A stretch of 41,420 bases of DNA from positions 1-41,420 of the forward strand of contig DAINNB010000001.1 in the NCBI GenBank assembly GCA_036736085.1, read 5' to 3'. Positions within the stretch are counted from its first letter, which is position 1. Each line of letters opens with the position of its first letter. A program made the position numbers and the translations under genes. The stretch is from Chlamydiales bacterium. Its GTDB lineage: Bacteria; Chlamydiota; Chlamydiia; Chlamydiales; SM23-39. The notes under the pieces were generated by a model, which ran no database searches, was not told the DNA's origin, and saw only the letters and a list, made by a program, of their open reading frames with translations. This document shows positions 1,728 to 41,314 of this stretch, in pieces.

Positions 1728-1898
1728 ATGAGCGATAAATTAACTAGAATGTCAATAGATATAGCTTCAAAAGAGCATAAAAAAATAAAAATGAGAGCCG
1801 CTAAAGAGGGGGTCTCGATCCGAGAATTTGTCATCGATTGCATCCAAGATAAAATCGAAGCGCAAAGCTGCGAAAAAGATAGTAAAAAAAAGAAATAA
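1728..1898 (+). CDS. small ribbon-helix-helix protein (56 aa; below the ORF-track length cut-off)
   Basis: Hand translation: MSDKLTRMSIDIASKEHKKIKMRAAKEGVSIREFVIDCIQDKIEAQSCEKDSKKKK. It carries the same RHH motif as its neighbour. AGGAG lies 5-6 nt upstream of the ATG at 1728, and the stop TAA is at 1896-1898. Confidence 0.65.
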   Translation: MSDKLTRMSIDIASKEHKKIKMRAAKEGVSIREFVIDCIQDKIEAQSCEKDSKKKK

Positions 1899-2067
1899 GT
1901 CTTTTTGGCAAGAGTTTGTCTGCAGATTTGATCTCCATTTAATCCATAAAACCCGAGAGAAAAAAATCTGCAGACACCCTCTCAGAATTTTACCCCTTGT
2001 TCCTTTGAGCGTTATCTTGAAAAAAAAACATAAGTCTAAAAAACACTCTCCTTCGATCTCATTAAAT

Positions 2068-3165
2068 ATGATCGTAAAAAACGAGAGTCCTGTTATTGAA
2101 CGTTGTTTAGCTTCTGTCAAACCCTACATCGATTATTGGGTCATTGTGGATACTGGATCTACAGATGGCACCCAAGAGATCATTAGGCGCTATCTGACAG
2201 ACGTTCCTGGCGAGCTCCATGAAAGGCCTTGGGTCGATTTTGCTCACAATCGGAATGAAGCTCTTGAGCTTGCAAAATCAAAAGCAGATTATCTTCTTTT
2301 TATTGACGCCGACCAAGTTCTTGAGTTTAGCCATTCCCCGGTTTTGCCTCCTTTGACTAAAGATTGTTATTTTGTCACTGTCCACTCTGATTTTAGATAT
2401 GCCGCCCAATATATTTTGTTTGTTCGGACGAGTCTTTCTATGTCTTGGCAGGGAGTTTTGCATGAAGGGCTCGTAAGCAATGCAGATAGCTACGGTGTAT
2501 TTACTGATATTAAAATTTCTGCCTTTTCTGATGGCAACCGATCCAGAGATCCCAGAAAATTTTATAAAGATGCTGATATCTTAGAAAAAGTTCTCCAAAA
2601 AGAACCTGACAACGCAAGGTATGTGATCTTTCTTGCTTTAACGTATGACGCAGCCTTAGAGCATAACTTGGCTCTCAAGTGGTTTGAGAAAAGATCTCAA
2701 ATGGGAGGAAGAGAGGAAGAAGTATTTTATTCCCTTCTCAAAATTGCTCACCTGCAAAGACATCTTCAATATCCTTCCGAAGTATTTATCGCCTCTTATG
2801 AAAAGGCGTATCAAAACCGTCCGACAAGGGCTGAACCCCTCTATTGGCTTGCAGACTACTACATTACCCAGAAAGACTTTGAGAAAGCTTACGCGCTCGC
2901 TCAAAAAGCGCTAACGATTCCTCTTCCTTTCACAGATCAAATTTATTTAGAATATGCTGTCTATGAGTATGAAATTCTTTTACAGATCGTCAAATGCGCT
3001 TATCAAACCAAAAGATATCAAGAAAGTTATCAAGCCCTTTTGCGCCTTCGATCTATTTCACAGCTGCCCGCACTCTCTCGATCTCAAGTAGAAGACATCT
3101 TGCCTCACGTAAGGGACATGTCCCTTTCTCTAGGAGTAACAGCAGTCTCTTCACCAGGCAGCTGA
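2068..3165 (+). CDS. family 2 glycosyltransferase with C-terminal TPR-like helical domain
   Basis: MIVKNESPVIERCLASVKPYIDYWVIVDTGSTDGTQEII...LLFIDADQVLE is a GT2 GT-A signature with a DAD motif. The C-terminal half is TPR-like (ALTYDAALEHNLALKWFEKR..., YYITQKDFEKAYALAQKAL). The track ORF starts at 1828 but would overlap the RHH gene. ATG 2068 or in-frame TTG 2017 are more plausible starts. Confidence 0.75.
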   Translation: MIVKNESPVIERCLASVKPYIDYWVIVDTGSTDGTQEIIRRYLTDVPGELHERPWVDFAHNRNEALELAKSKADYLLFIDADQVLEFSHSPVLPPLTKDCYFVTVHSDFRYAAQYILFVRTSLSMSWQGVLHEGLVSNADSYGVFTDIKISAFSDGNRSRDPRKFYKDADILEKVLQKEPDNARYVIFLALTYDAALEHNLALKWFEKRSQMGGREEEVFYSLLKIAHLQRHLQYPSEVFIASYEKAYQNRPTRAEPLYWLADYYITQKDFEKAYALAQKALTIPLPFTDQIYLEYAVYEYEILLQIVKCAYQTKRYQESYQALLRLRSISQLPALSRSQVEDILPHVRDMSLSLGVTAVSSPGS

Positions 3166-3368
3166 TTTTTATCGCTTGGAGAGGCTATTTTCTCAATTGC
3201 TTCCTCTGCTTTCTTGGAAAGCCACTCGTCTTCTAAATTTTTCATCATCTGAAACGCCGAAAGCAGCATGAACTTTCTCATGGAAATTCCAAGCTGTGCG
3301 CTGGCCATTTTTAGATAGGTATGTTCTTCTGGGGTCATATCGATCGTTAAACGCGCATAATGCTTCAT
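3105..3368 (-). CDS. ribbon-helix-helix domain protein (third paralogue)
   Basis: MKHYARLTIDMTPEEHTYLKMASAQLGISMRKFML carries the same motif. A strong AAGGAG lies 6-7 nt upstream of the ATG. Its 3' end overlaps the convergent GT2-TPR gene by 61 nt. Confidence 0.7.
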   Translation of the reverse strand: MKHYARLTIDMTPEEHTYLKMASAQLGISMRKFMLLSAFQMMKNLEDEWLSKKAEEAIEKIASPSDKNQLPGEETAVTPRERDMSLT

Positions 3369-3499
3369 ACAAGACTCCTTTGTTGTTCCGGTATACAGAA
3401 AAACAGAATTTATTTGCTATCGCAGTTTTTCAAATGTGTTTGATAATCAGAGTTTTGAGTATCTACTTATTTCAGTGAAGGATAGGCGTCATTGTTAGA

Positions 3500-3808
3500 G
3501 AAAGGGCTCCGCCCTTATACCCGCCAAAAGGGGCAAGCCCCCTCTGGACTCCATTTTATTTTTATATTTATAGGTAATTGCAAAAGTCGTTTTGATGGCC
3601 AAATTCGATGGTTTTTTCGTTGGCTAGGTTTTTCGCAAAGTGACATATCCTTTTGGCCATAGGCACTTTGCGAAAAATCCGAACCAACGGAAAAAGCGTG
3701 AATTTGGCACCGAGTGGACTTTTGCAATTACCTCTTTATACAAAAAAAACAAAAAGGGTTCTAAGGGAACTTGTTCCCTTAGCGGGTATAAGGGCAGAGC
3801 CCTTTCGC
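3500..3808. repeat. long palindromic MITE-like element, copy 1 (outer arms GAAAGGGCTC[C/T]GCCCTTATACCCGC; nested inner palindrome AGGTAATTGCAAAAGTC...GACTTTTGCAATTACCT)
   Basis: The left end and the reverse complement of the right end match. The interior is itself an imperfect palindrome (gccaaattc/gaatttggc, ttttcgttgg/ccaacggaaaa, tttttcgcaaagtg/cactttgcgaaaaa). It is homologous to 5598-5902 in the opposite orientation. Confidence 0.85.
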
Positions 3809-3815
3809 TGGCAGT

Positions 3816-4733
3816 ATGAACAAGATGGATAAAATAAAAACTTTTTCTAATTTTATAAATAAATATAAAGTAAGTTTTATGTCGTTTATTAAAAATCATT
3901 TTAAGAAAATTCATCTAAAAGAACAGTTAGGTCAAATTGATGGAATCGATGCGATTTATCTCATTAATTTAGATCAAAGGACTGAGAGAAGAGATCGGTG
4001 TCTTCAGCAGTTGCGGCCTTATGGGATTGTTCCTGAGAGGTTTTCTGCTATTTATGGATGGGAGATTTCTCAGGAGGCATTTGATGAGGTGGGGTTGAAA
4101 TTTCTTCCTCCGATGGGGTTTCTCTTTGACCGGCGCGTGTTTTTTCGTCCTTCAAGTCATCAAGATGTAGGAGAGCGTTTGAATGAATCTTCTTATGGGA
4201 GGACGTGCGTAAATATCTTTACGATTGCAGGAGCGATAGGTTGCGCATTAAGTCATTTATCTTGCCTTCAAGATGCTTTTGATGGTGGGGTGGAGACTGT
4301 TTGGATTTTAGAAGATGATTTAACAGTTTTTCAAAACCCCCGCTATTTGACCTATTTCATGGGAAAACTCGATCAGATTGTGGGCAAAGAGGGGTGGGAT
4401 CTTCTTTATACAGACAACCATCATATTTTTCCTCTTCGGGAAGGGAAGTATTTCCATGTTCGGCCTGATCGCCCTCCTATTCTTCACGCCTACGAAAACT
4501 TTTTAGTAGGAGATGACTTTATTCAAATTAACGGTCGAGCGGAACTACATTCGACCCTTTATCGGCGCTGTGGCATGAAGAAAATTTTAGAGTACTTTCA
4601 CCATTTCGGCATTTTTCATCCCATTGATATTGAGCTCTATAGTATTCCCGATCTTCGTATGTACAACCTAAGATCTGAGATTGTCGGGCATGGAGGATCC
4701 ACACAGTCCGACACAAGAGATCGAGCATTTTGA
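3816..4733 (+). CDS. family 25 glycosyltransferase (LPS/LOS beta-1,4-galactosyltransferase-like)
   Basis: IDAIYLINLDQRTERRDRCLQQL is the GT25 N-terminal signature, and WILEDD is a DXD-like motif. It is paralogous to 35575-36441. By comparison with that paralogue, the start may be a downstream ATG (3879). Confidence 0.8.
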   Translation: MNKMDKIKTFSNFINKYKVSFMSFIKNHFKKIHLKEQLGQIDGIDAIYLINLDQRTERRDRCLQQLRPYGIVPERFSAIYGWEISQEAFDEVGLKFLPPMGFLFDRRVFFRPSSHQDVGERLNESSYGRTCVNIFTIAGAIGCALSHLSCLQDAFDGGVETVWILEDDLTVFQNPRYLTYFMGKLDQIVGKEGWDLLYTDNHHIFPLREGKYFHVRPDRPPILHAYENFLVGDDFIQINGRAELHSTLYRRCGMKKILEYFHHFGIFHPIDIELYSIPDLRMYNLRSEIVGHGGSTQSDTRDRAF

Positions 4734-5596
4734 GGTTTTTGATGACAAACCGCTATGTAAGCTGCTCATTTATAGGACAGCTAGGCAATCAGTTATTTAT
4801 GATTGCTGCTACTTTAAGTTATGCCTGGGATCACCGTGCAATTGCTACTTTCCCTGGACTTCATGATAGCAATTATCGGCTATCTTACAATCGGGATCGA
4901 ATTTTTTTCCGCCTAAATACCTTCCAACCTCCAACTCCTTTGATCAAAGAGTTTGCCCACACCTACTGGTATCCTGTACACCGAATCCCTTACTGTGAAG
5001 ATAATCTCTTTCTTACCGGCTACTACCAATCATGGCACCATTTTCATCATCATAGAGAAAAACTACTCTCTCTCTTCGCCCCTCATCCAGATACATTAGA
5101 CTATCTATCTCAAAAATACAGAGACCTGCTTCACCATCCCTATACTGTAGCGATCCACGTTCGCACTTATTGCCTAAGAGACCATAAAGCGCTGCCTTTT
5201 TTAGGGTTAGATTATATAAAAGACAGCATAAAACTCTTTCCCGGCTCTCCTCAATTTGTCGTTTTTTCCGATCGGATCAATTTGTGCAAAAAACATTTTG
5301 AGCCGCTAGAAGGCAATTTCATTTTTATAGAAGGTAATGACGGCAACCAAGATTTAGCCTTGATGAGCCTCTGCAAACACAACATCATCGCAAATTCCAC
5401 ATTCTCCTGGTGGGCCGCCTACCTGAACCAACATGATCAAAAAAAAGTCGTCGCTCCAGCCCTTGTCTACCGTTCAGGCCCCACGCACCATTTCTACTGC
5501 CCCGAGTGGATACAAATCCCTGTCACCCTTCAACCCTATCCAGAAGATATGCGCGCTTATGATGAAGTCAGTCAGTCGTTTGATAATAACGACTAA
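4730..5596 (+). CDS. family 11 glycosyltransferase (alpha-1,2-fucosyltransferase-like)
   Basis: GQLGNQLF, HVRTY and NSTFSWWAAYLN match the GT11 motifs (GGLGNQ.FQ / HVRRGDY / NSTFSWWAAYL). TTG 4730 overlaps the upstream stop; ATG 4742 is an alternative start. Confidence 0.85.
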   Translation: MRFLMTNRYVSCSFIGQLGNQLFMIAATLSYAWDHRAIATFPGLHDSNYRLSYNRDRIFFRLNTFQPPTPLIKEFAHTYWYPVHRIPYCEDNLFLTGYYQSWHHFHHHREKLLSLFAPHPDTLDYLSQKYRDLLHHPYTVAIHVRTYCLRDHKALPFLGLDYIKDSIKLFPGSPQFVVFSDRINLCKKHFEPLEGNFIFIEGNDGNQDLALMSLCKHNIIANSTFSWWAAYLNQHDQKKVVAPALVYRSGPTHHFYCPEWIQIPVTLQPYPEDMRAYDEVSQSFDNND

Positions 5597-5597
5597 T

Positions 5598-5902
5598 GAA
5601 GGGCTTCGCCCTTAGACCCGCCAAGGGGACACGTCCACTTGGAACCCCTTTTGTTTTTTTATATATAAAGAGGTAATTGCAAAAGTTCATTCGGTGCCAA
5701 ATTCGGGCTTTTTCCGTTGCTTCGGATTTTTCGCGAAGTGCCTACGGCCAAAAGGATATGTCGCTTTGCGAAAAACCAAACCAACGAAAAAATCATCGAA
5801 TTTGGCCCTCGAAGCGACTTTTACAATTGCCTCTAAAAAGAAAAAAGGGAATCCAGAGGGGGCTTGCCCCCTTTGGCGGGTTTAAGGAAGGAGCTCTTTC
5901 GC
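5598..5902. repeat. long palindromic MITE-like element, copy 2 (inverted relative to copy 1)
   Basis: It aligns along its whole length with the reverse complement of 3500-3808, with most positions identical by eye. It starts 1 nt after the GT11 stop codon. Confidence 0.85.
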
Positions 5903-5937
5903 TGATAACATCGAAACTCTGTTTTTGAAATAATTTT

Positions 5938-6540
5938 CTAAGAAACTGATTCCCATTTTGTGGAATGGATTTGGAGTTCGGGGTGGGAAATGAGGAGGTG
6001 CCATAAAATGGCTTGGAAGCCTTCTGTGTGTGGCGTAATGGCTGAGCGATCTATTGTGGGAACTATGATGCAGGCGTCGGCTTGTTTAGCTGTATAACCT
6101 CCGTCTTTTCCTACGATTCCGATGATTTTGGCTTTTACGTTTTTAGCTGTTTTGATGGCCTCAACGAGGTTTGTTGAGATTTTTTTTTCTTCTGAGCCGC
6201 CGCCTACAGAGAAAATAAAAAGGCCGTCTTTTTCATTGAGTTTGCTTACAGTTAGGTAATTTGCTAGAGAGCTGTCCCAGCCGTCATCGTTGATTCGAGC
6301 TGTGAGCTCGGAGATATTGTCGAGGGGGCAGTAAGCTTCGAAACGTCCGAGTTTTCGAAAGTCGCAAGTAGCGTGGGAAGCATGGCCGGCTCCTCCTCCG
6401 GAGCCAATAAAAAAAAGGCGTCCTTGATCTTCTCGGATTTTTTTTAAGATCAGAGCGCATTTTTCAATCGATTCAAGATCGAGTTTATTGATGATCTGAG
6501 AAGTTTGTGCTAAAAATTGTTTTGCGAACATAGTGATCAA
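5938..6540 (-). CDS. gmhA: SIS-domain sedoheptulose-7-phosphate isomerase (GmhA-like)
   Basis: SIS pattern RLFFIGSGGGAGHASH...FIFSVGGGS...KIIGIVGKDGG, in an operon with gmhB, hddA and hddC. Confidence 0.7.
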   Translation of the reverse strand: MITMFAKQFLAQTSQIINKLDLESIEKCALILKKIREDQGRLFFIGSGGGAGHASHATCDFRKLGRFEAYCPLDNISELTARINDDGWDSSLANYLTVSKLNEKDGLFIFSVGGGSEEKKISTNLVEAIKTAKNVKAKIIGIVGKDGGYTAKQADACIIVPTIDRSAITPHTEGFQAILWHLLISHPELQIHSTKWESVS

Positions 6541-7058
6541 GCCATTTTAAGTATTTTAATAATTTGTTCGAAAGAGTTGCAGTTCATGTCTCCGAGGCCA
6601 TGGATAAACCGGTTGTACTCTGTTTGCAGTAAAATTGTGATGACCCCGGCTCTTTTTCCGGCTTGAAGATCTTTGAGGGAGTCTCCTAGAAAAAAAGATT
6701 GAGAGAGGTCTAGATACAGAGCTTCAGCGCTTTGTAAAAGCATGCCAGGATTAGGTTTGCGACGAATATACGCGTCATTAGAACTTGTGCAGACCTCGAT
6801 TCGATCAAAAGGGATATTTTCCTGGATGACTTGGTGCATTTTTTTGAGTTCTTTTCGAGAAAGAAGGCCCCTTGATACATCGGGTTGGTTTGTCACAAGA
6901 ACAAGGAAAAAACCAAGCTCCTTGGCGATTTGGGCTAGTAGAATCGTATCTGGAATTAAGACAAGCTCTTCGAGGTGGCGAGGAGATTGAGGTTTCCCTT
7001 CTCTCATGACTACTTCATTGACAATTCCATCTCTGTCTAAAAAAAGAGCTCTATTCAT
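6537..7058 (-). CDS. gmhB: HAD-IIIA D,D-heptose 1,7-bisphosphate phosphatase (GmhB-like)
   Basis: ALFLDRDGIVNE (DxDG nucleophile motif), VTNQPDVSRG, RKPNPGML, GDSLKDLQAGKRAG. Confidence 0.8.
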   Translation of the reverse strand: MNRALFLDRDGIVNEVVMREGKPQSPRHLEELVLIPDTILLAQIAKELGFFLVLVTNQPDVSRGLLSRKELKKMHQVIQENIPFDRIEVCTSSNDAYIRRKPNPGMLLQSAEALYLDLSQSFFLGDSLKDLQAGKRAGVITILLQTEYNRFIHGLGDMNCNSFEQIIKILKMA

Positions 7059-8070
7059 GGAGAAGCACCCTAGTTTTTTGAAGATTTGACTGTTCGATGG
7101 CGGCTATCACTTGATTGGCTCTACATCCATCTTCTCCGTTGCCGAGAGGTGGGGTCCTTGCAAAAATGGCTTTCTTAAACTCTTCCCATTCTAACTTCCA
7201 GCTAATGTCCTCATCTGGATAAGAAAAAGTTTTGATTTCTGGAGGACCACCTTCGAGTTTTCTTAACATGCATTCCAAAGTTTCTTGGCCATAGCTGCCT
7301 CCAAGTCCTTGGATATGAAGAGATCCCTTGGATCCGAAAAGCTCAAAAGAGAAAAGGTTTTTCCATTGGGTCCAGCTTACATGGAACATTGCATCGGCGC
7401 CTGAAAGAGTTTTACCTAGAACAAAGGCGTTATCTTCAACATCCATCGGCCAAAAAGCTGTATTAAGAGAAGCGTAGACCTCTGCCCAGCCCCCGCCAAA
7501 CCATTGCATGAGATCAATGATATGGATCCCTTGGTCTAAAAGCTCTCCGCCTCCACATAGGCTTTTGGAGGCTCTCCACTCTTTTTCCATGCCAGGCCGG
7601 CCTCCATGTCCATAACGGGCTCGAAGAGAAAGCAGTTTGCCGATCACACCTTGGTCGATAAGGTTTTTGGCTTTGGCGATAGCTGGATGAAATCGATGAT
7701 TAAACCCGGTTTTAACGATGAGAGTTCGCTTGGATTTTGTCGCTGCATCCAAAATAGCTTTGGATTCTAGAAAATTTCTTCCAAATGGCTTTTCAACGAG
7801 AAGATCTTTTCCCATCTGGAGCGCATGAATCGCTATCTCCGCAGAGAGATGATTAGGAGTAGAGACGATGACTGCATCTACTTCTGGAGATGAGACAGCT
7901 TCTGTCCAATCAACGAGAGCTTGGCAGTGGTGTTGAGAGGCGAGCTTTTCAGCCGATTCTTGATGGATATCGACGACGAAGAGTAACCGGGCCTCTTTGT
8001 CTTTGGCAATTTCAGCGGCTCTTTTTTTCCCGATGAGCCCGCAGCCAATAATGGCGACATTTACTGCCAT
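7051..8070 (-). CDS. Gfo/Idh/MocA family NAD(P)-dependent sugar oxidoreductase
   Basis: N-terminal Rossmann fold VAIIGCGLIGKKR and the family motif LLVEKP. Confidence 0.75.
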   Translation of the reverse strand: MAVNVAIIGCGLIGKKRAAEIAKDKEARLLFVVDIHQESAEKLASQHHCQALVDWTEAVSSPEVDAVIVSTPNHLSAEIAIHALQMGKDLLVEKPFGRNFLESKAILDAATKSKRTLIVKTGFNHRFHPAIAKAKNLIDQGVIGKLLSLRARYGHGGRPGMEKEWRASKSLCGGGELLDQGIHIIDLMQWFGGGWAEVYASLNTAFWPMDVEDNAFVLGKTLSGADAMFHVSWTQWKNLFSFELFGSKGSLHIQGLGGSYGQETLECMLRKLEGGPPEIKTFSYPDEDISWKLEWEEFKKAIFARTPPLGNGEDGCRANQVIAAIEQSNLQKTRVLLHE

Positions 8071-8924
8071 GATAAGCCCCGGTCTTTCGGGATGATTCTG
8101 CGGAGTGTGAATAAATCGCTTTCTTTGAGTTCCTTGATGCGCTGAGGAAACTCTTTCCAGGTATCGTAGGGAGCTGCGATAAATTTTCCTGTAATCCCTC
8201 TTGAGGCATCGGACACAAAGAACGCGGCAGCTGAAGCTCCTAGTTCAATCGGAACTCCTCCCCGGTCCACTTCTTGTTTTGTTTTTTCTACAAATTCAGC
8301 TCCTGCTTTTTCTTGCGCGTTCAAGGTTTGCTCGTGCAGCCGTGTAATCACAAATCCAGGAGCGATGCAGTTGACTTCAATATGATAAGGCGCCATCTCT
8401 TGCGCTATTGTTTCTGTGAAACGGACGACAGCCGCTTTTGAGCAGGCATAGGAAGTATAATTAGGAAACGGCGTTGCAGCGCCTCCTCCGGAAAAAAGGA
8501 CCAGTTTGCCCCCATTTTGCTTTTTCCATCGTTTGCAGCTTTGCCTTGCCACTAAAAAAGAGCCAAAGAGATTGATATGGACTCCTTGAAGCCATTCTTT
8601 AGGGTCCACCTCTGTGATAGATCCGATTGTTCCATAGACTCCTGCAGCATGGATTGTTCCATGAAGAGGTCCAAACTGAGATTCGAAGAGGTTTAGCGCA
8701 TTTTCAATTTGAGATTCTTCTGTGACGTCAGTTACGCAGCCTGAAACTTGAGAAAAACCCTCTTGGCGCAGAGACTCAATCGCCTTTTGAAGCGCCTCTT
8801 CATGCCGCGCGCAAAGAAAAACGTTAGCTTCCCTTTGAAGGCATTGTTTAGCTGCGGCAAGACCAAGCCCCATACTGCCGCCTGTGATGAAAATGTTTTT
8901 CTTTCTTAGATGGAACTCTGTCAT
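8061..8924 (-). CDS. classical short-chain dehydrogenase/reductase (SDR)
   Basis: ITGGSMGLGLA (TGxxxGxG) and YACSKAAV (YxxxK). Confidence 0.8.
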   Translation of the reverse strand: MTEFHLRKKNIFITGGSMGLGLAAAKQCLQREANVFLCARHEEALQKAIESLRQEGFSQVSGCVTDVTEESQIENALNLFESQFGPLHGTIHAAGVYGTIGSITEVDPKEWLQGVHINLFGSFLVARQSCKRWKKQNGGKLVLFSGGGAATPFPNYTSYACSKAAVVRFTETIAQEMAPYHIEVNCIAPGFVITRLHEQTLNAQEKAGAEFVEKTKQEVDRGGVPIELGASAAAFFVSDASRGITGKFIAAPYDTWKEFPQRIKELKESDLFTLRRIIPKDRGLSWQ

Positions 8925-8927
8925 AGA

Positions 8928-11839: not shown

Positions 11840-11841
11840 TC

Positions 11842-18885: not shown

Positions 18886-18932
18886 GCGAATACTCTCATT
18901 AAGACCTATTTATATTAAGAGATATCCCTTAT

Positions 18933-29061: not shown

Positions 29062-29189
29062 GTAATTCTCTTTTATTTTTTGATTAATTGTATTTTTATT
29101 TGCTTTGATATGTGTCAATCTATATAAAAAATGTTTTTATGTAAAAGTTTTTGTGTTCTCATAGTTTTATAATATTGGGGAGGAATCTG

Positions 29190-34882: not shown

Positions 34883-35524
34883 ATGAAAGAAAAAGTTGTA
34901 TTGGTTGGCGTCGAATGGGACGTCATTGATCTAATCGAATCAATCCATTTTATTGATTTGATAGGAATTCTTGAATCTACTTATCCGAATGAATGTTATG
35001 ACATCAATTATCTTGGCTCAGATGAAAATTGGGAGGAACTCAAAGCAAAACATCCAGGATTAAAAGCAGTTTTACCGATCGATTCCCCCAAAATCAGAGC
35101 TCGCCTTTTAAAATATTATGGAGAAGAGGCTCTAATGACTCTCGTTTCTCCCGAATCTTACATTTCTTCAAGAGCCAGCGTAGGATTTGGAACAATCGTA
35201 CAAAGAGGAGTCAAGATTATGGCCCGAGCCTCCATTGGAAATTGCTGCAAAATTAACGTCAATGCCACCGTACACCATGAGTCCTTTATAGGTCATTTTT
35301 GCACGCTAGCGCCAGGTGCTCAGGTTCTCGGAAGGGTCATCGTAGGCAATTCTGTTTACATAGGCGCCGGCGCTGTGATCAAACAAAAATGTCGCATCGG
35401 CGATGGTGCTATCATAGGCGCTGGAGCCGTCGTTGTTCACGACATCCCTCCTCACGTCACTGTGGTCGGCATTCCCGCAAAAGAAATACAAAGAAAAATA
35501 CCCCTCTCAACGCCGTCAGCTTAA
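34883..35524 (+). CDS. NeuD/PglD-family hexapeptide-repeat sugar N/O-acetyltransferase
   Basis: N-terminal Rossmann-like VVLVGVEWDVIDLI, then left-handed beta-helix repeats (IGNCCKINVNATVHHESFIGHFCTLAPGAQVLGRVIVGNSVYIGAGAVI...GIPAKEI). Confidence 0.8.
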   Translation: MKEKVVLVGVEWDVIDLIESIHFIDLIGILESTYPNECYDINYLGSDENWEELKAKHPGLKAVLPIDSPKIRARLLKYYGEEALMTLVSPESYISSRASVGFGTIVQRGVKIMARASIGNCCKINVNATVHHESFIGHFCTLAPGAQVLGRVIVGNSVYIGAGAVIKQKCRIGDGAIIGAGAVVVHDIPPHVTVVGIPAKEIQRKIPLSTPSA

Positions 35525-35574: not shown

Positions 35575-36441
35575 ATGAAAGATACAATTTCAAAGCATTT
35601 TAGGTTGATACAAGATAAACACATTTCTTCTAAATTTCAGATTAGAAATGTAGATTTTATTTATTTAATTAATTTGGATAGAAGAACAGACCGGCTTCAA
35701 CGATGTTTTCGACAGCTTTCTCCTTACCAGATTAGGCCTCATCGTGCTCCTGGGATTGATGGCTGGAGTTTATCTCAAGAGGTATTTGATGATATTGCGA
35801 TGATCGTCGAGCCATCGATGCGGTATGATCGAAATGTACAGGTGAGCTTTGTTCCTGGGAATTCTCCTGGGAAACCATTTCGAGATCTTGTAGCAGGACA
35901 AAGGTGTTTGCATAAAGATGCGCCTGGCGGAGGAATGGGGGGGTGTTTGACCCATCTTTCCATCTTGGAGGATGCGTATATGTCCGGTTTTGAAACGGTA
36001 TGGATTTTGGAAGATGATTTTACCGCAAAAGGAAATCCCCATGAACTTGCCGATCTAATAGACCGTCTGGATAAGTTAGAGAGCGGCTGGGATGTTCTTT
36101 ATACAGATGATGATTGCTACTATACACCATCTAACGTTAGAGCTCACTGCGGAAGTGACGGGTGGCTAAGACCTGGAATGCCGATGACACCTTCTTTAAT
36201 TGAAAGAAAAGCTGTGGGAGAAGACTTTTTCAAGATCGGAGGCCGTACTCAGGCCCACTCTTATCTTGTCCGCAGGTCTGGGATGGAAAAGATTTTACGC
36301 TTCGTGAAGGAAAATTGTCTTTTTTTCCCTTTTGATACAGAGCTTCCTACCATTGAAGGGCTTTGCCTTTATAATTTAAAATACGATCTCATCCATGGAA
36401 GAGATCGGTCTTACTCCGATACGTATGTTAAACAGCCTTAA
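35575..36441 (+). CDS. family 25 glycosyltransferase, paralogue 2
   Basis: VDFIYLINLDRRTDRLQRCFRQL and WILEDD. Confidence 0.8.
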   Translation: MKDTISKHFRLIQDKHISSKFQIRNVDFIYLINLDRRTDRLQRCFRQLSPYQIRPHRAPGIDGWSLSQEVFDDIAMIVEPSMRYDRNVQVSFVPGNSPGKPFRDLVAGQRCLHKDAPGGGMGGCLTHLSILEDAYMSGFETVWILEDDFTAKGNPHELADLIDRLDKLESGWDVLYTDDDCYYTPSNVRAHCGSDGWLRPGMPMTPSLIERKAVGEDFFKIGGRTQAHSYLVRRSGMEKILRFVKENCLFFPFDTELPTIEGLCLYNLKYDLIHGRDRSYSDTYVKQP

Positions 36442-36587: not shown

Positions 36588-37358
36588 ATGTTTTACGAGC
36601 ATTTCATTGCTATTAATTATTCTAGTGAGAATTTTGAAAATAAAATAAATTCTGAAAAATAAAGTTTTTCTTCCGATCAAGAAAGCAGAGTGAGTTCTGC
36701 TTTTTCTAATGCAGATATATTAGAGGCTCAAGATCCAAGTAAACGTAAACGAGAAGAGCCTATTTCTCCAGTTGTTGCATCCTAGAGTAAAAGACAAAAA
36801 ATAGATTCTTCTCCTTTAGAGAAAACGAATGAGGTAGCTCAAGCCTATTTTTCAGCATCTTCCTCTTCTGAAGGTTCGTCGCAAAAAAAAGATGAGCTAA
36901 TTGGCTCCTTGTAAAATATTCATTGGAAGTTTGACGCAAGAGATTCAACCTTAAGCGTTATTCGTTTTTATGAAAGAAGTTTTGAATCAAATTATCGTTA
37001 TGGTACTGGTAAAATGATCTTTCTAGCCGGGACCGTATATGAAGGACGATTCAGTGAAGGAGTTGATCGCGGCCTTGGTAGGTTGACTAGCGCCAACGGG
37101 GATGTTTATGAAGGGGAGTTTATACCGTTCGTAACTTAAGAATCGGCTATTAGGCTGGTTCAAACCGCCAAAAATTGATCGCTGCAAAGTGGGGTAGTAT
37201 CGCTCGATACAACCTACTTTGCAGTGATCGATTTTTGGCAGCTTTCAATCCCGTCTAATAACCGATTCTTGATTCACGAACGGTATAAAAACGGATTGCC
37301 TTATTATGCAAATGAGGATGACTTTTTAAACATACCAAAATACTCGCCAGCCGCATAA
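36588..37358 (+). pseudogene. decayed MORN-repeat protein gene (three in-frame stops plus MITE insertion)
   Basis: A single frame from ATG 36588 is interrupted by TAA 36660, TAG 36783 and TAA 36912. The distal part reads YRYGTGKMIFLAGTVYEGRFSEGVDRGLGRLTSANGDVYEGEF / KNGLPYY, which is the MORN pattern Y.G.f..G...G.G. Confidence 0.6.
37123..37285. mobile_element. 163-bp palindromic MITE with TA target-site duplication (Tc1/mariner-IS630-type signature)
   Basis: The termini TACCGTTCGT...ACGAACGGTA are perfect inverted repeats, and the whole element is an imperfect palindrome. It is flanked by TA (37121-22) and TA (37286-87). It is unrelated to the AAGGGC repeat family. Confidence 0.75.
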
Positions 37359-37496: not shown

Positions 37497-38372
37497 TTAA
37501 TCGTTATTATCGATACACTGTGAGACTTTGTCGTAATCGTAGACGTCATCTGGCAACGGTTGAATGGGTCCGCAGTCCATTAACGTCCACTCGGGCAGGA
37601 AGAAATCTTCTGCTCGGGGGTTGATTTGCAGAGCGGGGTTTTTCCAAAGCCGTGGGAGGAGCACTTTTTTATCTGGATTTTGATTGAAATAAGCGGCCCA
37701 CCAAGAAAAAGAAGAGTTGCAGAGGATATTGTGTTTGCATTTTGCAAGTAAAAATAGATCTTCTATGGCGTAGTTATCCTCTACGAAAATGAAATTTCTA
37801 GGGATAGAAGAGAAGTGTTTTTTACACCAGTTGATTCGGTCTGAAGTAATGACAAATAGAGAGTCTTCAGGGAACTGATCGATGCATCTTTGATAATAGT
37901 CCATGCCCCAGAAGGGGTGATTCCCATTGTTATGTGTTCTTCGGCATTGTGTTCTTACGTGAACGCCTACTGTTTTAGGATGTTCTAGAACGTCTTTATA
38001 TTTTACTTGTAAATAGTGAAGAGTGAAATCTGAAGGGGCGAATACTTGTAGGAGTTTTTCTTGGTGATGATGAAAACGTTTCCAAGACTGGAGATAGCCA
38101 TTGAGTACGAGGTCGTTTTGAAAAGGGATTTTTTCTGCACCGTACCAGCTTGATTCTTCAAAAATATGTGCAGGGGGCCTTGGAAGCATTGATGAGTTTA
38201 ATCTAAAAAACATCCGATCTTTGTTATAAGAGATATTCCAAGCTTTTTGATGCAGGGCTGGAAAGTAGGCGTCTGCACCATAGTCCCAAGCGTAAGCTAA
38301 GGTAGTGGCTATTTGGAAAAATTGATTTCCAAGCTGGCCGTAAATTTGGCAAGAGACAAAGGGCTTTTGCAC
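37497..38372 (-). CDS. family 11 glycosyltransferase (alpha-1,2-fucosyltransferase-like), paralogue 3
   Basis: GQLGNQFFQIATTLAYAWDY, HVRTQC and NSSFSWWAAYFN. GTG start. Confidence 0.85.
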   Translation of the reverse strand: MQKPFVSCQIYGQLGNQFFQIATTLAYAWDYGADAYFPALHQKAWNISYNKDRMFFRLNSSMLPRPPAHIFEESSWYGAEKIPFQNDLVLNGYLQSWKRFHHHQEKLLQVFAPSDFTLHYLQVKYKDVLEHPKTVGVHVRTQCRRTHNNGNHPFWGMDYYQRCIDQFPEDSLFVITSDRINWCKKHFSSIPRNFIFVEDNYAIEDLFLLAKCKHNILCNSSFSWWAAYFNQNPDKKVLLPRLWKNPALQINPRAEDFFLPEWTLMDCGPIQPLPDDVYDYDKVSQCIDNND

Positions 38373-38376: not shown

Positions 38377-39057
38377 TTACACCGAATATAAGGGTTTTAA
38401 TACGATGACGGGTTCATGGAGTTCTTCATCATCCTTTTGGAGATCTTCATAAGAGTAGCCAAAGTAGCCTTGAGGCCGCCATCCTTTGAAGAGCTTTTTC
38501 ATCCGTTTTTCTCCATAGATTCTGTGCGAATTCCATATAAGTCGATCTTTGCCGACAGGAATTGATAGATAAAGAAGTCCAGAACCGTGAAGCAATTTTT
38601 TAGCTTCGTGCATAGCTTTTAGATCTGCATCGAGATCGATCGTTGACCCAAATCCGAGTGTTTTGAGTTGAAGTAAGAGAAAAATTGCATCAAAAGAGCG
38701 GGGTTTAGGTTCTTTTTCTACTTCTAAACAAGAATCCAAGGAGACATTAGACTGAGAAGGGATCGTTTTAGGTTGTATTCCCAAAGAGAGCAAAAGGCTT
38801 TCATACCAAGGATTTGTCGAAAATAAGACCCCTACATTTTTGCCTGCTGCTGGAAAAGTATTTAAAGCCTCGATAAGATAAATGTCAGTTTGAGATAGAA
38901 CAGTTCTATTCTTAATCATTGCTAGATAGGATTCTACTTGGCTTTTTGTAAAATGGGCTATTAACGGAGATTTAGGTTGATTTGTATAAGACAAAATTGT
39001 CTCTTCTTGTTGAAGTGTCTGATAAATTTCTTGAGGGATGTCTGGCTGATTGATCAT
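38377..39057 (-). CDS. DUF268-like protein (SAM-methyltransferase-like fold family best known from Caenorhabditis)
   Basis: ...NPWYESLLL...FDAIFLL...LLHGSGLLYLSIPVGKDRLIWNSHRIYGEKRMKKLFKGW resembles the DUF268 signature ending in FNAHRIYG..R. Recognised from memory and not searched. Confidence 0.5.
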   Translation of the reverse strand: MINQPDIPQEIYQTLQQEETILSYTNQPKSPLIAHFTKSQVESYLAMIKNRTVLSQTDIYLIEALNTFPAAGKNVGVLFSTNPWYESLLLSLGIQPKTIPSQSNVSLDSCLEVEKEPKPRSFDAIFLLLQLKTLGFGSTIDLDADLKAMHEAKKLLHGSGLLYLSIPVGKDRLIWNSHRIYGEKRMKKLFKGWRPQGYFGYSYEDLQKDDEELHEPVIVLKPLYSV

Positions 39058-39575
39058 GAGGGAACTACTGCTAATAACATATCATCCGGATTTTTCCTGC
39101 TATAAAGACTGATTTTATAGTTAGGATTGATCTCTAGGATTTTTTTCTTAATATCATCGATTTCTATGAAATCAAATTCTGCTGTTCCAAAAAGTTTTGC
39201 ATCATCGATCATGATCGTATGATTTTTAATAAAATGCTCTTTGATCCGATCTAATTCATGCAAAATAGGATTGTGAGTGAGTCCTTTGGCTGTATTTTCT
39301 GAAGAGTAGTGGCTATCTAGCCAAAACGTAGCAGGGGCTTCAATATGTGCAAGAAGCTCAGACAGAAGAACGCTAGAATCCCCCAAAAAGAGTTCTACCT
39401 GAGGATAATCAGCAAATTCTTTTCGGCAGTGTTCATAGAGCTCTGGAGCCATCTCTATGGAATAGATCTTTTCAAAAAGCCCTGAATGAAGGGCTCTTTT
39501 GATTCCATATCCGTAGTAGCTTCCCGTTTCTATGAAATATTTATTGGGACAATGAGGGTATGGATAAAATTGCAT
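39054..39575 (-). CDS. putative class I SAM-dependent methyltransferase-like protein
   Basis: YFIETGSYYGYGIKRAL...IYSIEMAPELY...LGDS resembles a glycine-rich SAM motif followed by an acidic beta-2 end. Its start overlaps the stop of the downstream gene. Confidence 0.45.
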   Translation of the reverse strand: MQFYPYPHCPNKYFIETGSYYGYGIKRALHSGLFEKIYSIEMAPELYEHCRKEFADYPQVELFLGDSSVLLSELLAHIEAPATFWLDSHYSSENTAKGLTHNPILHELDRIKEHFIKNHTIMIDDAKLFGTAEFDFIEIDDIKKKILEINPNYKISLYSRKNPDDMLLAVVPS

Positions 39576-39576: not shown

Positions 39577-39711
39577 TTATTCCGTTTCTTCTACTGAAGA
39601 AATAATCTTATTAACTAAATGTAGTCCTTGAATGCCTTGTACTTTCAAAAAAACATCGCATAAAAGAGCCATAGACTTATCGATTTCTGTGTCGATTTCT
39701 AAATATTTCAT
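39577..39711 (-). CDS. small hypothetical protein, 44 aa (paralogue B)
   Basis: Hand translation: MKYLEIDTEIDKSMALLCDVFLKVQGIQGLHLVNKIISSVEETE. Its stop is 1 nt from the next gene's start. It is below the ORF-track cut-off. Confidence 0.5.
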   Translation of the reverse strand: MKYLEIDTEIDKSMALLCDVFLKVQGIQGLHLVNKIISSVEETE

Positions 39712-39733
39712 AACTAGTACCTCTATTGATAAC

Positions 39734-39768
39734 TCGTGGCGTTAGATCAAACGATTATAACGCCACGA
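39734..39768. other. perfect 11-bp inverted repeat (TCGTGGCGTTA / TAACGCCACGA) with 13-nt loop between the two small ORFs
   Basis: Read directly from the sequence. No U-tract follows on the minus (coding) strand, so it is an intercistronic hairpin rather than a classical terminator. Confidence 0.6.
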
Positions 39769-39785
39769 AATATTATTTATTAATA

Positions 39786-39917
39786 TTATTCTTCTTTTAT
39801 AGCTGCAATAACTTGATTTACTAACTGCGCTACTTGAAGACCTTGCGATTTAAGAGCCACATCGAAGATTTCATAGATGATTTTTTCCATCTCTTTATTT
39901 ATTTTTAGTTTTTTCAT
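39786..39917 (-). CDS. small hypothetical protein, 43 aa (paralogue A)
   Basis: Hand translation: MKKLKINKEMEKIIYEIFDVALKSQGLQVAQLVNQVIAAIKEE. Its ATG is 2 nt after the GT10 stop. A gapless alignment with paralogue B shares 18 positions, including DV.LK.QG.Q...LVN..I. Confidence 0.5.
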   Translation of the reverse strand: MKKLKINKEMEKIIYEIFDVALKSQGLQVAQLVNQVIAAIKEE

Positions 39918-39919
39918 TT

Positions 39920-40891
39920 TTAAATACCTAGTTTTTTCACTTGATCAATAATTGTATTTACCATGTTTTCTAAAGAGAATAACTTTATTTTTTGATTGTT
40001 GGTTAGATAATTTTGTCCTGCGGAGATGTAATTTTGATAGGTAGATTTATCCATGGATGTCATAAAATCCCAAATCCTTTTCTGGGCAGCTTCTCCTTGA
40101 CCGCCAAAGTCTCTAGCGTCAATAAAACAGTCTTTTGGGACGTAATCGTGGATATTGGGAGCTCCTAAATAAACAGGAACATTTCTAGCAAATAGAGAAT
40201 TGAAAATTCTTTCAGTGATAAATCCAAGCTCATCTCCTGTATTTTCATAGCAAATAGCAAATTTGTATTGTCCAAGCAGAGCTTTATTGGTTTTAGTCAT
40301 CCCTTTCCAGCTTTTTAATCCTTGCCAATTGACTCCATAGACATCGAATTCTTTTGAAAATGAAGAGAGCTGAGTAAAAAATTCTGCTAAATTTTTTCTC
40401 TCTGTATACAATTCTCCAGGGAAATGGCGGAAAAATTTGTTTCCTTGAACCATGCAGCAGAGTTTTCTTTTTTCAAAAGGAACTTCTTGTTCTTGAGATA
40501 TTGGATTTTTTTGAGTAATTAAATGATAGATTTTAAAATAGTTCTGATTGTCTACGAATCTATCTAAAAGCAAAAATATTTTGCCAAACCTTGATCTAGT
40601 AACTGGAGAATAAAAGCTCGGCATAACCAAAGGAGGCTCTGTTGCGATGAGAAAGCAGCGCTCTCTTGGATATTGAGCTAGCTGCTGAATTCTTGTTTCA
40701 TCTAAATCTGCAGAGATGAGAACAGAAAAATCGCCTAAATGACCAGCATCATTGCTATTTCTTACGGTGTATCCAAGACTTTGCAAAGCTTGCTTTAAAG
40801 CTGTCCCTAAACCTTCGTGCGGAGAGGGAACTAAATTCCCTATTTGTTCTTCTAAATTAAGAAGCCAAGCAACTTTAGAATTTATGGTCAT
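39920..40891 (-). CDS. family 10 glycosyltransferase (fucosyltransferase-like), paralogue 4
   Basis: RKLCCMVQGN...FDVYGVNW...YKFAICYENTGDELGFITERIFNSLFARNVPVYLGAPN. Confidence 0.85.
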   Translation of the reverse strand: MTINSKVAWLLNLEEQIGNLVPSPHEGLGTALKQALQSLGYTVRNSNDAGHLGDFSVLISADLDETRIQQLAQYPRERCFLIATEPPLVMPSFYSPVTRSRFGKIFLLLDRFVDNQNYFKIYHLITQKNPISQEQEVPFEKRKLCCMVQGNKFFRHFPGELYTERKNLAEFFTQLSSFSKEFDVYGVNWQGLKSWKGMTKTNKALLGQYKFAICYENTGDELGFITERIFNSLFARNVPVYLGAPNIHDYVPKDCFIDARDFGGQGEAAQKRIWDFMTSMDKSTYQNYISAGQNYLTNNQKIKLFSLENMVNTIIDQVKKLGI

Positions 40892-41017
40892 TGTTTTTTT
40901 TGAAATTATTAATTCTAATTATAATTGTTTGTTTTTCTTTAGTCAAACACTTCGTTTGATAGTTAATAGATTGCGTTAATTTTTTTGTTTTAATTTTTAT
41001 TTGCCTTCGTTTCCTTC

Positions 41018-41314
41018 TTAATAATTCTTTTGTAAAGTCGTATTAATTAATAAATTGTTTGTTTTTTGATAGAAAGTGATTTGACTGTTCATAAACCAAT
41101 GGTGATCTACTATTTTAGCTCCTTCTGGACTTCCTAATTGAAGAGGCTCGAAATAATATTTCCACCAATTTTGACCATATCTTGGATCGTAGTAATTTCC
41201 TGTGTTCTTATGATCTACTTCGATACCCGAGCAGATTCGAAATTCATAAAAATAAAGCCCTGGAAGAACTGCGCAAACATCAGCACCTAGGCTGAGCCCT
41301 TTGCTTGATCTTTT
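41018..41314 (-). pseudogene. 5' remnant of a second NodZ/GT23-like gene (paralogue of 20742-21683)
   Basis: The minus-strand frame reads KGLSLGADVCAVLPGLYFYEFRICSGIEVDHKNTGNYYDPRYGQNWWKYYFEPLQLGSPEGAKIVDHHWF, colinear with residues ~17-93 of the full-length paralogue. It has no start codon (in-frame stop at 41315-17) and diverges to a stop at 41018. Confidence 0.65.

Follow-up and report, generated by a model that had tools for sequence, protein, structure and literature searches.

The window analyzed here is a complete 41,420-bp contig (DAINNB010000001.1), and we propose that it covers the greater part of an accessory island for glycosylation in an uncultured member of the Parachlamydiales. 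It encodes twelve predicted glycosyltransferases, an extensive set of sugar-nucleotide enzymes, eight methyltransferase-like proteins and a single integral membrane protein. Forty-one open reading frames (ORFs) of the window were scanned against Pfam, with the curated gathering scores used as cut-offs.

Glycosyltransferases, sugar donors and methyltransferases

Four GT10 proteins, three GT11 proteins and a GT23-like protein, eight of the twelve transferases, fall in the inverting, GDP-sugar-dependent "fucosyltransferase" superfamily. An initial annotation of this DNA, made from the sequence alone, had listed the four GT10 and three GT11 genes, and all seven scored above the gathering score of their model (23.9 bits each for PF00852 and PF01531). 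The GT10 genes are located at 19688-20704 (-; 57.1 bits; motif YKFTLAYEN..GFTTERL), 23423-24394 (+; 59.3 bits), 30297-31190 (+; 54.2 bits) and 39920-40891 (-; 47.9 bits; homologues 61-83% identical). The motif YKFxxxYEN...G(Y/F)ITER was found in three of the four copies (the form tested was FxxxFEN....YxTEK), and the copy at 30297-31190 carries the variant GYVGDKI. This third copy is truncated at its 3' end; homology to its paralogues runs past 31190 through two in-frame stops to 31265, and the gene may be decaying. All four proteins have an invariant Glu in an "EP" motif, which we infer to be the counterpart of the catalytic Glu of the Helicobacter pylori enzyme. With a profile built from the window GT10 proteins and their relatives, all GT10 structures of the PDB, from plants, insects and H. 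pylori as well as human FUT9, were matched at E values of 1.7e-18 to 2.4e-16.

The GT11 genes are located at 4730-5596 (+; 78.5 bits; GQLGNQ, HVRT, FSDR..CKKHF, NSTFSWWAAY), 25171-26067 (-; 81.4 bits) and 37497-38372 (-; 91.2 bits). GQLGNQ, FSDR..WCKKHF and NSTFSWWAAY are kept, and motif I reads H(V/A)RT, not HxRRGD. A GT11 search of PDB sequences gave no match. Identity among paralogues is low (33-43% for GT10 and 50-52% for GT11), and both sets of paralogues in the window are old.

Two GT25 genes had also been predicted, and both assignments stood. GT25a (3816-4733, +) scored 54 bits against PF01755 (cut-off 24), while GT25b (35575-36441, +) scored 22.1 bits, just under the cut-off, yet is 39% identical to GT25a (E 4e-60). 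Homologues of GT25b that are 70-72% identical occur in two of the related loci described below (L004 and L008). Phase variation was considered and rejected, as the only C or G run of seven or more is a G7 at 35937-35943 within GT25b, with none in any GT10 or GT11 gene.

The gene at 20742-21683 (-) encodes a GT-B glycosyltransferase with a predicted NodZ/FUT8-like fold. It fails the NodZ model of Pfam (PF05830), scoring 13.6 bits (E 0.03) where 28.3 are required, and no Pfam domains are listed among the precomputed assignments for nine of its homologues. A profile of these nine homologues matched NodZ at E 1.7e-8 and FUT8 at ~7e-3. With the AlphaFold model of the protein (pLDDT 75.5, pTM 0.80), Foldseek returned only NodZ (E 1.3e-8), FUT8, AtFUT1 and POFUT1, all of them GDP-fucose-type GT-B enzymes, at TM scores of ~0.5. 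In the GDP-binding Arg motif, R-G-T is invariant in the alignment, and the His of HxR is replaced by Phe in the window copy. Because the Pfam cut-off was missed while the profile and the modeled fold match NodZ and FUT8, we file the protein as GT23-like rather than as a demonstrated GT23 member. The initial annotation had proposed one intact and one decayed NodZ/GT23-like gene, and this was borne out at the GT23-like level: the likeness holds by profile and fold, with the NodZ model itself not reached, and the decayed copy is a real N-terminal fragment (41299-41075(-)). The fragment, which appears to be a pseudogene remnant of a second GT23-like gene (41075-41299, -), is 53% identical by tblastn to residues 16-90 only and resembles the homologue in L024. 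The GT23-like family has neither a Pfam nor an NCBIfam model and counts 6,180 representative clusters when the E-value limit is set at 1e-3, or 721 when it is 1e-30; some of its members are tandem-duplicated proteins of 500-790 aa.

A GT2-TPR glycosyltransferase gene at 2068-3165 (+) was confirmed by PF00535 (50.7 bits) and by TPR repeats. Its longest ORF starts at 1828, which adds a spurious N-terminal extension, and the 365-aa form that starts at 2068 is the cluster representative P0087. A search of the PDB with this protein matched, among GT2 structures, only SunS (E 3.8e-10), GmaR (8e-10) and ThuS, with E values of 4e-10 to 3e-8. We assign it to a SunS/GmaR-like subgroup and consider it a candidate initiating protein glycosyltransferase. 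A 279-aa protein with a DSD motif at residue 117 (21690-22529, -) is a candidate GT-A enzyme that had no Pfam, NCBIfam or PDB match; its single-sequence structural model (pLDDT 34.7) was unusable and was not used. By hydropathy, no transmembrane (TM) segment was found in any of the window transferases, in line with the earlier view that all of them are soluble.

The donor genes are consistent with a factory for mostly GDP-linked unusual sugars, a palette that would fit the prevalence of GDP-sugar-dependent transferase families. A mannose-1-phosphate guanylyltransferase, ManC, lacking a phosphomannose isomerase domain, is encoded at 16934-17962 (+; NTP_transferase 167 bits plus the ManC beta-helix; TIGR01479 323.8 against a cut-off of 373). 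The GDP-mannose 4,6-dehydratase gene gmd lies at 12851-13885 (-; TIGR01472 531.6 bits, cut-off 415), and Gmd is the only donor-pathway protein to pass an equivalog cut-off. Two short-chain dehydrogenases/reductases (SDRs) that look Fcl-like are homologues of GDP-mannose 3,5-epimerases (GMEs). The first (15205-16167, +) keeps SSACVYP and YGWEK, with exact GGREKAPA not found, and is 50% identical to the second (27203-28225, -), which matches Arabidopsis GME (2c59) over residues 4-322 with 308 bits (E 7.7e-91) and keeps the catalytic Cys and Lys motifs SSACIYP and GGREKAPA.

No protein of the window came near the GDP-L-fucose synthase (Fcl) model. Against a cut-off of 500, the two GME paralogues scored 112-114 and further proteins 90.5, 85 and 39.7, the last being a weak C-terminal similarity of a divergent SDR (28222-29118, -; Epimerase 61.8 bits) that is possibly a 4-reductase. 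Fucosylation itself, which the initial annotation had put forward, thus remains unproven in spite of the presence of Gmd, with 114 as the best synthase score, and its passing hint at GDP-L-galactose fared better. Because GME homologues are present and nothing matches the Fcl model, the evidence favors GDP-L-galactose over GDP-L-fucose as the donor. Acceptance of GDP-L-Gal is known for fucosyltransferases of both GT10 and GT23 (PMC8787198). Since the island has GME but no canonical Fcl, the GT10 donor need not be GDP-L-fucose, and GDP-L-Gal or other GDP-sugars seem equally possible.

Two further modules were recognized. The heptose-type module comprises a divergent GmhA-like SIS-domain sugar-phosphate isomerase (5938-6540, -; SIS_2 30.3 bits; gmhA models 47.8 bits, far below cut-off), a GmhB-like HAD-IIIA phosphatase (6537-7058, -; TIGR01656 92.1 bits, cut-off 84; GmhB models below cut-off), an HddA-like GHMP sugar kinase with N and C domains (11842-12840, -; best match HddA, 192 bits, below the cut-off of 600) and a sugar-1-phosphate nucleotidylyltransferase resembling HddC and mannose-1-phosphate guanylyltransferase (11135-11839, -; NTP_transferase 94.5 bits; HddC 80.8, below cut-off). 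With them lie a LegB-like SDR epimerase/4,6-dehydratase (10211-11134, -; Epimerase 188 bits; best NCBIfam match LegB, 147, below cut-off), nucleotide-sugar 6-dehydrogenase 1 (8928-10214, -; TIGR03026 276 bits, cut-off 189.8), a short-chain dehydrogenase (8061-8924, -; adh_short 155.9 bits) and a Gfo/Idh/MocA sugar oxidoreductase (7051-8070, -; PF22725 and PF01408; UDP-GlcNAc 3-dehydrogenase-like at 111 bits, below cut-off). The amino-sugar module holds a second LegB-like SDR 4,6-dehydratase/epimerase (32652-33617, +; best NCBIfam match LegB, 144.7 bits, below cut-off), a DegT/PseC/LegC-type aminotransferase (29151-30293, +; PF01041 297 bits; PseC 246 and LegC 223 bits, both below cut-off), a NeuD/PglB/VioB-family sugar N-acetyltransferase (34883-35524, +; TIGR03570 167 bits, cut-off 160.8), a third nucleotide-sugar dehydrogenase resembling UDP-ManNAc/GlcNAc dehydrogenases (31279-32655, +; TIGR03026 323 bits) and the second C-methyltransferase. 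Nucleotide-sugar dehydrogenase 2 (26075-27193, -; TIGR03026 233.5 bits) showed only the N-terminal and central Pfam domains, with no C-terminal domain detected.

About eight methyltransferase-like genes had been estimated, and we counted eight: two C-methyltransferases, three of the FkbM type (one disrupted), one class I enzyme, one DUF268 protein and one small methyltransferase-like ORF. Both NDP-sugar C-methyltransferases pair Methyltransf_14 with the zinc-binding Methyltransf_13 domain (13882-15114, -, 160.8 bits for Methyltransf_14; 33629-34876, +, 144.9 bits). Because the gene of the first, a TylC3-type enzyme, overlaps gmd by 4 bases, the pair suggests a branched 6-deoxyhexose as a product. 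The FkbM-type proteins scored 27.9 bits (16239-16937, +, a weak match), 83.5 bits (22549-23295, -) and 45.5 bits against PF05050, the last on a 124-aa remnant ORF (24657-25031) of a gene spanning 24451-25031 (+). That gene is split into two frames, with blastx giving two pieces against L013:2324-3046, and only the 124-aa ORF is intact. The class I S-adenosylmethionine (SAM) methyltransferase lies at 18933-19745 (-; Methyltransf_11 75.2 bits), and the DUF268 protein at 38377-39057 (-; PF03269 52.2 bits). Next to the latter, 39054-39575 (-) encodes a small conserved protein with no family match and a SAM-methyltransferase-like ETGSYYGYG motif; it travels with DUF268, GT11 and GT10 genes, having homologues of 67-78% identity in L002 and L006 and others in about ten further loci. 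The initial suggestion of a glycan of methylated-fucoside type is reasonable in the sense of a methylated 6-deoxy- or L-hexose product.

The same annotation had found no polymerase, flippase or exporter, and this was right for the families it named: no Pfam family for Wzx, Wzy, Wzz, an ABC exporter, an initiating phosphoglycosyltransferase or a ligase was present among the 41 ORFs. What it overlooked is an EamA/DMT-family transporter of ~10 TM segments at 17986-18885 (-; EamA twice, 92.8 bits; at least five hydrophobic segments), the sole integral membrane protein. A six-frame scan of the window revealed no Walker-A or LSGGQ motif and no further multi-TM ORF. Homologues of the transporter, 71-75% identical, adjoin GT10 genes in L001-L005. 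The protein matched a generic DMT model only weakly and nothing in the PDB. Our guess is that it moves a small metabolite (e.g., SAM/S-adenosylhomocysteine or a nucleotide sugar) rather than exporting a glycan. Bringing in SAM for the eight methyltransferases is one possible role, and carrying nucleotide sugars another.

Related islands and genomic setting

A genome scan with a single GT10 query found nothing, and a scan with a GT10 alignment as the query, covering one genome per species, gave 466 relatives (loci are numbered here with the prefix L). About 25 of the best 79 loci are from Chlamydiota metagenome-assembled genomes (MAGs), with others coming from Verrucomicrobia, Dependentiae (TM6) and the candidate phyla radiation. 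Several are mosaic islands that share whole modules with the window at 53-87% identity: L006/L166 (Chlamydiales C15_metabat.bin.97), L008 (BP7.bin23), L004, L007, L013, L024 and L001/L002/L165 (GCA_016276955.3 and ENA contigs). Multi-copy sets of GT10, GT11, GT25, FkbM and DUF268 genes recur in related MAGs of Chlamydiota and other members of the Planctomycetes-Verrucomicrobia-Chlamydiae (PVC) group, and the arsenal of the window is not unique. In L004 (JAUXWI010000088.1, labelled Methylococcales bacterium) the EamA, GT25, GME and dehydrogenase genes are 70-81% identical to those of the window; its accession series is shared with a Chlamydiales MAG, and it is either mis-binned or the result of a recent transfer.

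Like the window, the island-like relatives (L006/L166, L008, L001/L002/L165, L004, L007, L013 and L024) contain no multi-TM protein other than EamA. In nine other GT10 loci, mostly from Chlamydiota, the membrane proteins encoded nearby are amino-acid, SNF, MFS and SSF permeases, a sensor kinase, UbiA, cytochrome oxidase and an EamA, and no Wzx or Wzy was found beside GT10. Because the related islands equally lack exporters, the missing dedicated exporter is a property of such islands and not an artefact of the window edge.

The left edge could be followed in an independent assembly. DLXJ01000127.1 of GCA_003448855.1 (L171) is 99.8% identical to window positions 1-9476 and reaches 4,034 bp further left, where it carries DnaB and a conserved 515-aa gene and no exporters. 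The possibility raised earlier, that wzx and wzy lie just outside the window, is accordingly disfavored for the left 4 kb of this near-identical assembly, and the window is itself a whole contig.

Phage-type integrase genes stand at the other edge of two related islands (L002:14241-15212 and L004:6027-8102), and the L012 and L013 islands abut housekeeping genes, which for L013 are UvrB and a 715-aa GreA. The integrase genes at the edges and the mosaic order of modules suggest that the island is mobile or often recombining. A viral origin was rejected: GT10 relatives in 2.9 million viral contigs were at most 31% identical and mostly partial. We found no description of GT10/GT11 islands, or of such a system, in Chlamydiota in the literature, in agreement with the initial view that it is undescribed in the lineage. 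A chlamydial MAG from marine sediment (L012) has, at 5709-12601, two GT2-TPR genes, a GT2 gene, a 600-aa ORF with a GT10 match and a 558-aa GT2; the cluster, an exporter-less pairing of GT2-TPR with GT10, is located between a 2OG-Fe(II) oxygenase and Fic/RecD2/MetRS genes.

The G+C content of the window is 35-45% along its course, ~89% of it is coding, and no tRNA genes were found in it. A protein 100% identical to the last GT10 is known from this contig only, and 90%-cluster mates of the window proteins are named Parachlamydiales bacterium (MAG TPA: HAB99808.1, HAB99514.1, HAB99069.1). Positions 1-900 (+) encode the C-terminal 299 aa of the 515-aa backbone protein, cut by the contig start; it is 82% identical to L165:7149-8696 and has no family match. 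In relatives the 515-aa gene lies downstream of DnaB and overlaps the end of this DnaB-type helicase gene by 4 bases, the full pair being visible at L171:1618-4934. The backbone is the better conserved part, at 82% identity, as the glycan genes common to the window and this same relative (L002) reach 58-78%. Next to the island in L171, neither a tRNA gene nor an Rfam RNA was detected. To the left of DnaB, a stretch of ~150 nt (L171:399-545), with no tRNA and no Rfam match, is 75-77% identical to sequences in L015 and L035 and is possibly a dispersed repeat.

The GT2-TPR gene is bracketed by three small ORFs that resemble ParD/ribbon-helix-helix proteins, an arrangement kept in L165, L166, L167 and L171, and these ORFs may encode regulators or partition proteins. 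The first (1383-1712, +, 109 aa) scored 25.4 bits against PF09386, below the cut-off of 27.3, and holds the same position in those four loci. The second (1728-1898, +, 56 aa) resembles the first by tblastn, and a 58-aa ParD is annotated there in relatives; the third (3105-3368, -, 87 aa) corresponds to a ParD annotated at the equivalent site in the same four loci. Between 36442 and 37496, a degenerate stretch of ~1 kb without a credible gene has only ORFs of up to 62 aa. It contains a peptide fragment resembling a MORN repeat (37014-37139) as well as 28 aa similar to L002:13460-13738, an ORF near the integrase, and is probably a degraded junction between modules.

A candidate protein acceptor and competing explanations

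The GT2-TPR gene heads the island, after DnaB and the 515-aa gene, in four genomes (L165, L166, L167 and L171). Just beyond DnaB, 5 kb from the island, giant fibre proteins of ~1,490 aa are encoded in two relatives, with two genes in L165 (801-5276(-) and 1-770(-)) and a counterpart in L167 (840-5291(-)) that is 78% identical to the L165 fibre. The L165 fibre has 13 tandem repeats of ~82 aa with 22% Ser+Thr in the repeats, an overall composition of 16% Gly, 12% Thr, 10% Ser and <2.5% K+R+E, and a C-terminal Gly_rich_2 domain. It had no match among PDB sequences, and its only phage match was a short repeat in Ralstonia phages.

On the 31,342-bp C15 contig (JAUXXF010000023.1), the C-terminal part of the fibre is encoded at the left end (L166:2-1339(+)) and the N-terminal part at the right end (L006:14670-15672(+)), on the same strand. 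Four tandem GT2(-TPR) paralogues lie between the fibre gene and DnaB, with ParD-like genes and the glycan island inside. Such an arrangement would fit, without proving it, a circular plasmid of ~32 kb or more whose break falls within the repeat gene. In PLSDB the fibre matched only a set of ~280-aa paralogues, encoded by a 19.7-kb plasmid from Candidatus Rhabdochlamydia porcellionis (NZ_CP075586.1; L168), which points to fibre-type proteins being a plasmid-associated family in Parachlamydiales. On that plasmid, at least two genes in a run of ~280-aa hypotheticals (13395-14237 and 18085-18921) have one copy of the fibre repeat each, and the product of 13395-14237 shares its C-terminal domain with the L166 fibre. 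The 515-aa protein had no match in PLSDB. DnaB matches chlamydial plasmid helicases at 36-39% and chromosomal dnaB equally well. A common plasmid backbone was sought and rejected, since the helicase-like gene of the Rhabdochlamydia plasmid and its neighbour are not homologous to the DnaB/515-aa pair. The window contig has no terminal overlap, and circularity is not demonstrable from the window.

The island probably builds a complex methylated glycan in the cytoplasm. Where the initial annotation left the acceptor open, between lipooligosaccharide (LOS) core, protein and host glycans, the choice can now be narrowed toward protein. SunS and ThuS are peptide S-glycosyltransferases and GmaR is the flagellin O-GlcNAc transferase of Listeria. 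Because the GT2-TPR protein is closest to these three and, in relatives, giant repeat proteins rich in Thr and Ser are encoded beside the island, a protein acceptor is favored, and the Thr/Ser-rich fibre protein would be the best candidate. Our preferred, still tentative, reading is a stepwise cytoplasmic glycosylation of a protein begun by the GT2-TPR enzyme.

Under this scheme, ManC would supply GDP-mannose, from which the two GME paralogues would make GDP-L-galactose or GDP-L-gulose, and Gmd together with the C-methyltransferase a branched GDP-6-deoxyhexose. The SIS protein, kinase, phosphatase and nucleotidyltransferase would make a heptose-type NDP-sugar, to be altered by the dehydratase and dehydrogenases, and the second dehydratase, aminotransferase, NeuD-type acetyltransferase and second C-methyltransferase an acetamido-dideoxy sugar. 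The GT2-TPR enzyme would start the chain on a protein, the giant Thr/Ser/Gly-rich repeat fibres being the best candidate acceptors. The twelve soluble transferases, their families assigned by homology and their specificities predicted, would add one sugar at a time without a polymerase. GT10, GT11 and GT23-like enzymes would install alpha-L-Gal, L-Fuc-type or other GDP-sugar residues, the two GT25 enzymes would add beta-hexoses, and six O-methyltransferase-like proteins would methylate or cap the product. The glycan would leave the cell on its carrier protein, which would make a flippase, a polymerase, a ligase and an ABC exporter dispensable. A bolder version, possible but rather doubtful, holds that environmental chlamydiae carry a mobile, possibly plasmid-borne module in which giant Thr/Ser/Gly-rich fibres are coated with methylated L-galactose, branched 6-deoxyhexose and heptose-type oligosaccharides by a complete cytoplasmic O-glycosylation factory that employs enzymes of the fucosyltransferase families.

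Several observations weigh against a protein acceptor of this kind. The similarity of the GT2-TPR protein to SunS and GmaR is confined to the GT2 domain (E ~1e-10), and its best NCBIfam match, the SunS family (TIGR04195), reached 49.7 bits against a cut-off of 350. The family is also very large, with at least 6,854 matches, and its members occur as singletons amid housekeeping genes as well. No signal peptide is evident on the fibre protein. A fibre gene is absent both from the window and, in its own strain, from the adjoining 4 kb on the left, where assembly gaps lie beyond DnaB; the link between fibre and island is synteny in relatives that are 60-82% identical. The taxon of the contig rests solely on MAG binning. 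GT25, finally, is classically a LOS family.

The last point belongs to the main rival, which we consider doubtful: Kdo (3-deoxy-D-manno-octulosonate)-lipid A would be extended stepwise on the cytoplasmic face of the inner membrane and exported by the housekeeping MsbA/Lpt machinery. Chlamydiae make LOS, LOS loci typically hold just transferases and sugar genes, and the soluble transferases of the window, with no exporter among its genes, would suit such a locus. So would the two GT25 genes, whose family bears the Pfam title "LPS biosynthesis protein," and the one GT2-TPR homologue that adjoins lpxC-fabZ-lpxA-fmt. Moreover, the only characterized bacterial GME, from the PVC bacterium Methylacidiphilum, has been tied to lipopolysaccharide (LPS) (PMC8787198). 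However, neither the window nor the related islands contain a Kdo- or lipid A-directed transferase (GT9, GT30), and the heptose-type module resembles, by pathway logic, the GDP-heptose route (HddA/HddC) and not the ADP-heptose route of LPS cores. LOS extension would also leave the affinity of GT2-TPR to protein glycosyltransferases and the adjacent fibre genes of relatives unexplained. An O-antigen or capsule built on undecaprenyl phosphate, perhaps ABC-dependent with a methylated terminator and with initiator, exporter and ligase on other contigs, appears unlikely. The window is one whole contig with the rest of the genome outside its view, methyltransferases typically end the chain where an O-antigen is made by the ABC-dependent route, and non-chlamydial GT10 relatives often lie beside 10-13-TM proteins of ~500 aa, one of which was confirmed as Wzx-type (L027). 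Yet none of ~10 related island copies, together >150 kb, has such genes, the left flank in the window's own strain holds DnaB and a backbone gene, and only housekeeping permeases occur beside GT10 in the nine further loci.

Host mimicry, in which GT25, GT10 and GT11 enzymes would build true Lewis/H-type epitopes of Gal-GlcNAc carrying alpha1,2 and alpha1,3/4 L-fucose, as in H. pylori, had been a leading idea of the initial annotation and now seems very improbable. The triad of families is indeed that of H. pylori, and Gmd is present. In addition, a GT6 enzyme of Parachlamydia acanthamoebae transfers GalNAc to H-antigen and 2'-fucosyllactose in vitro, which implies H-type acceptors in the lineage (PMC3516806). 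The window, though, has no canonical GDP-L-fucose synthase and no recognizable GT6 or GlcNAc-transferase, and its sugar modules point mainly to L-Gal, C-methylated, N-acetylated amino, heptose-type and O-methylated residues, a chemistry foreign to Lewis antigens. The fut-like genes also lack poly-C/poly-G phase-variation tracts, and Parachlamydiales typically live in protists.

Significance and comparison with known systems

Recurring mosaic islands, here with twelve transferases and ~20 sugar-modifying enzymes, imply an elaborate and variable glycan on many environmental Chlamydiota. Such a glycan likely helps to determine how the bacteria are taken up by protist hosts or evade these hosts and their lectins. 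They are also a source of enzymes: GMEs (one bacterial GME has been characterized; PMC8787198), possible natural L-galactosyltransferases among the GT10, GT11 and GT23-like proteins, and the unmodelled GT23-like family. If the acceptor is a protein, the island would offer a testable entry to protein glycosylation in an obligate intracellular phylum. If the fibre-glycosylation module is real, no complex glycoconjugate and no protein glycosylation system would have been described in Chlamydiota before it, and it would be a bacterial counterpart of giant-virus fibril glycosylation that presumably governs recognition of the protist host.

The Lewis-LPS machinery of H. pylori (FutA/FutB of GT10, FutC of GT11, and GT25) uses the same three CAZy families of soluble or peripheral enzymes, with GDP-sugar donors and stepwise synthesis without a polymerase. 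H. pylori relies on undecaprenyl phosphate, the Wzk flippase, WaaL, a canonical GDP-fucose synthase and phase-variable poly-C tracts, whereas the window has no Fcl and no such tracts. The island adds two GMEs, two C-methyltransferases, six O-methyltransferase-like genes and the GT23-like gene, and its genes are clustered, while those of H. pylori are scattered.

Cytoplasmic protein O-glycosylation islands (Listeria GmaR; the flagellin islands of Pseudomonas, Campylobacter and Clostridioides; SunS/ThuS) include the closest matches of the island's GT2 domain, and in them GT2 with TPR initiates on protein. They likewise combine sugar-nucleotide genes, soluble transferases and methyltransferases with no flippase, the glycan being exported on its carrier. 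The island differs in having no flagellin or lantipeptide gene, its candidate acceptor being the 1,490-aa fibre seen in relatives only, and in its twelve transferases, mostly of fucosyltransferase-type families; the score of its GT2-TPR protein also lies below the cut-off of the SunS model. The LOS loci of Neisseria, Haemophilus and Campylobacter are similarly mosaic and hypervariable, with soluble transferases (including GT25) and sugar-nucleotide genes and no dedicated exporter. Unlike these loci, the island has GDP-L-sugar donors, no Kdo- or heptose-directed core transferase and no simple-sequence phase-variation tracts.

The virenose pathway for the phase I LPS of Coxiella burnetii, another intracellular bacterium, follows the same logic as the Gmd/C-methyltransferase pair, in which Gmd and a C-methyltransferase of the TylC3 type convert GDP-mannose into a branched 6-deoxyhexose, but virenose belongs to a Wzm/Wzt-type O-antigen. 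The Coxiella pathway consists of Gmd, a C-3 methyltransferase and an Fcl-like epimerase/reductase. In Parachlamydiales, no "blood-group-type" transferase other than the P. acanthamoebae enzyme PaGT6 has been tested by experiment; the work on this single enzyme was done in vitro, and no GT6 was detected in the window. PaGT6 needs an alpha1,2-fucosylated acceptor (PMC3516806), and therefore GT11-type products are implied in Parachlamydiales. The fibril and capsid glycosylation clusters of Mimivirus and chloroviruses share with the island the concept of a self-contained cytoplasmic glycosylation of large structural fibre proteins, by sugar-nucleotide enzymes, soluble transferases and methyltransferases, in inhabitants of protists. 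The gene organization of the island is nevertheless bacterial, and its viral GT10 relatives are the distant, mostly partial ones described above (<=31% identity).

Chlamydiae are the textbook case of a minimal surface glycan: their lipid A bears no O-antigen, just a Kdo trisaccharide. The parts of the island are all of known kinds, namely glycosyltransferase families, sugar-nucleotide modules and exporter-less islands, and it is their combination that is new: a dense fucosyltransferase-type set, a GME-based supply of L-sugars, double C-methylation and heavy O-methylation, in a phylum held to have minimal LOS.

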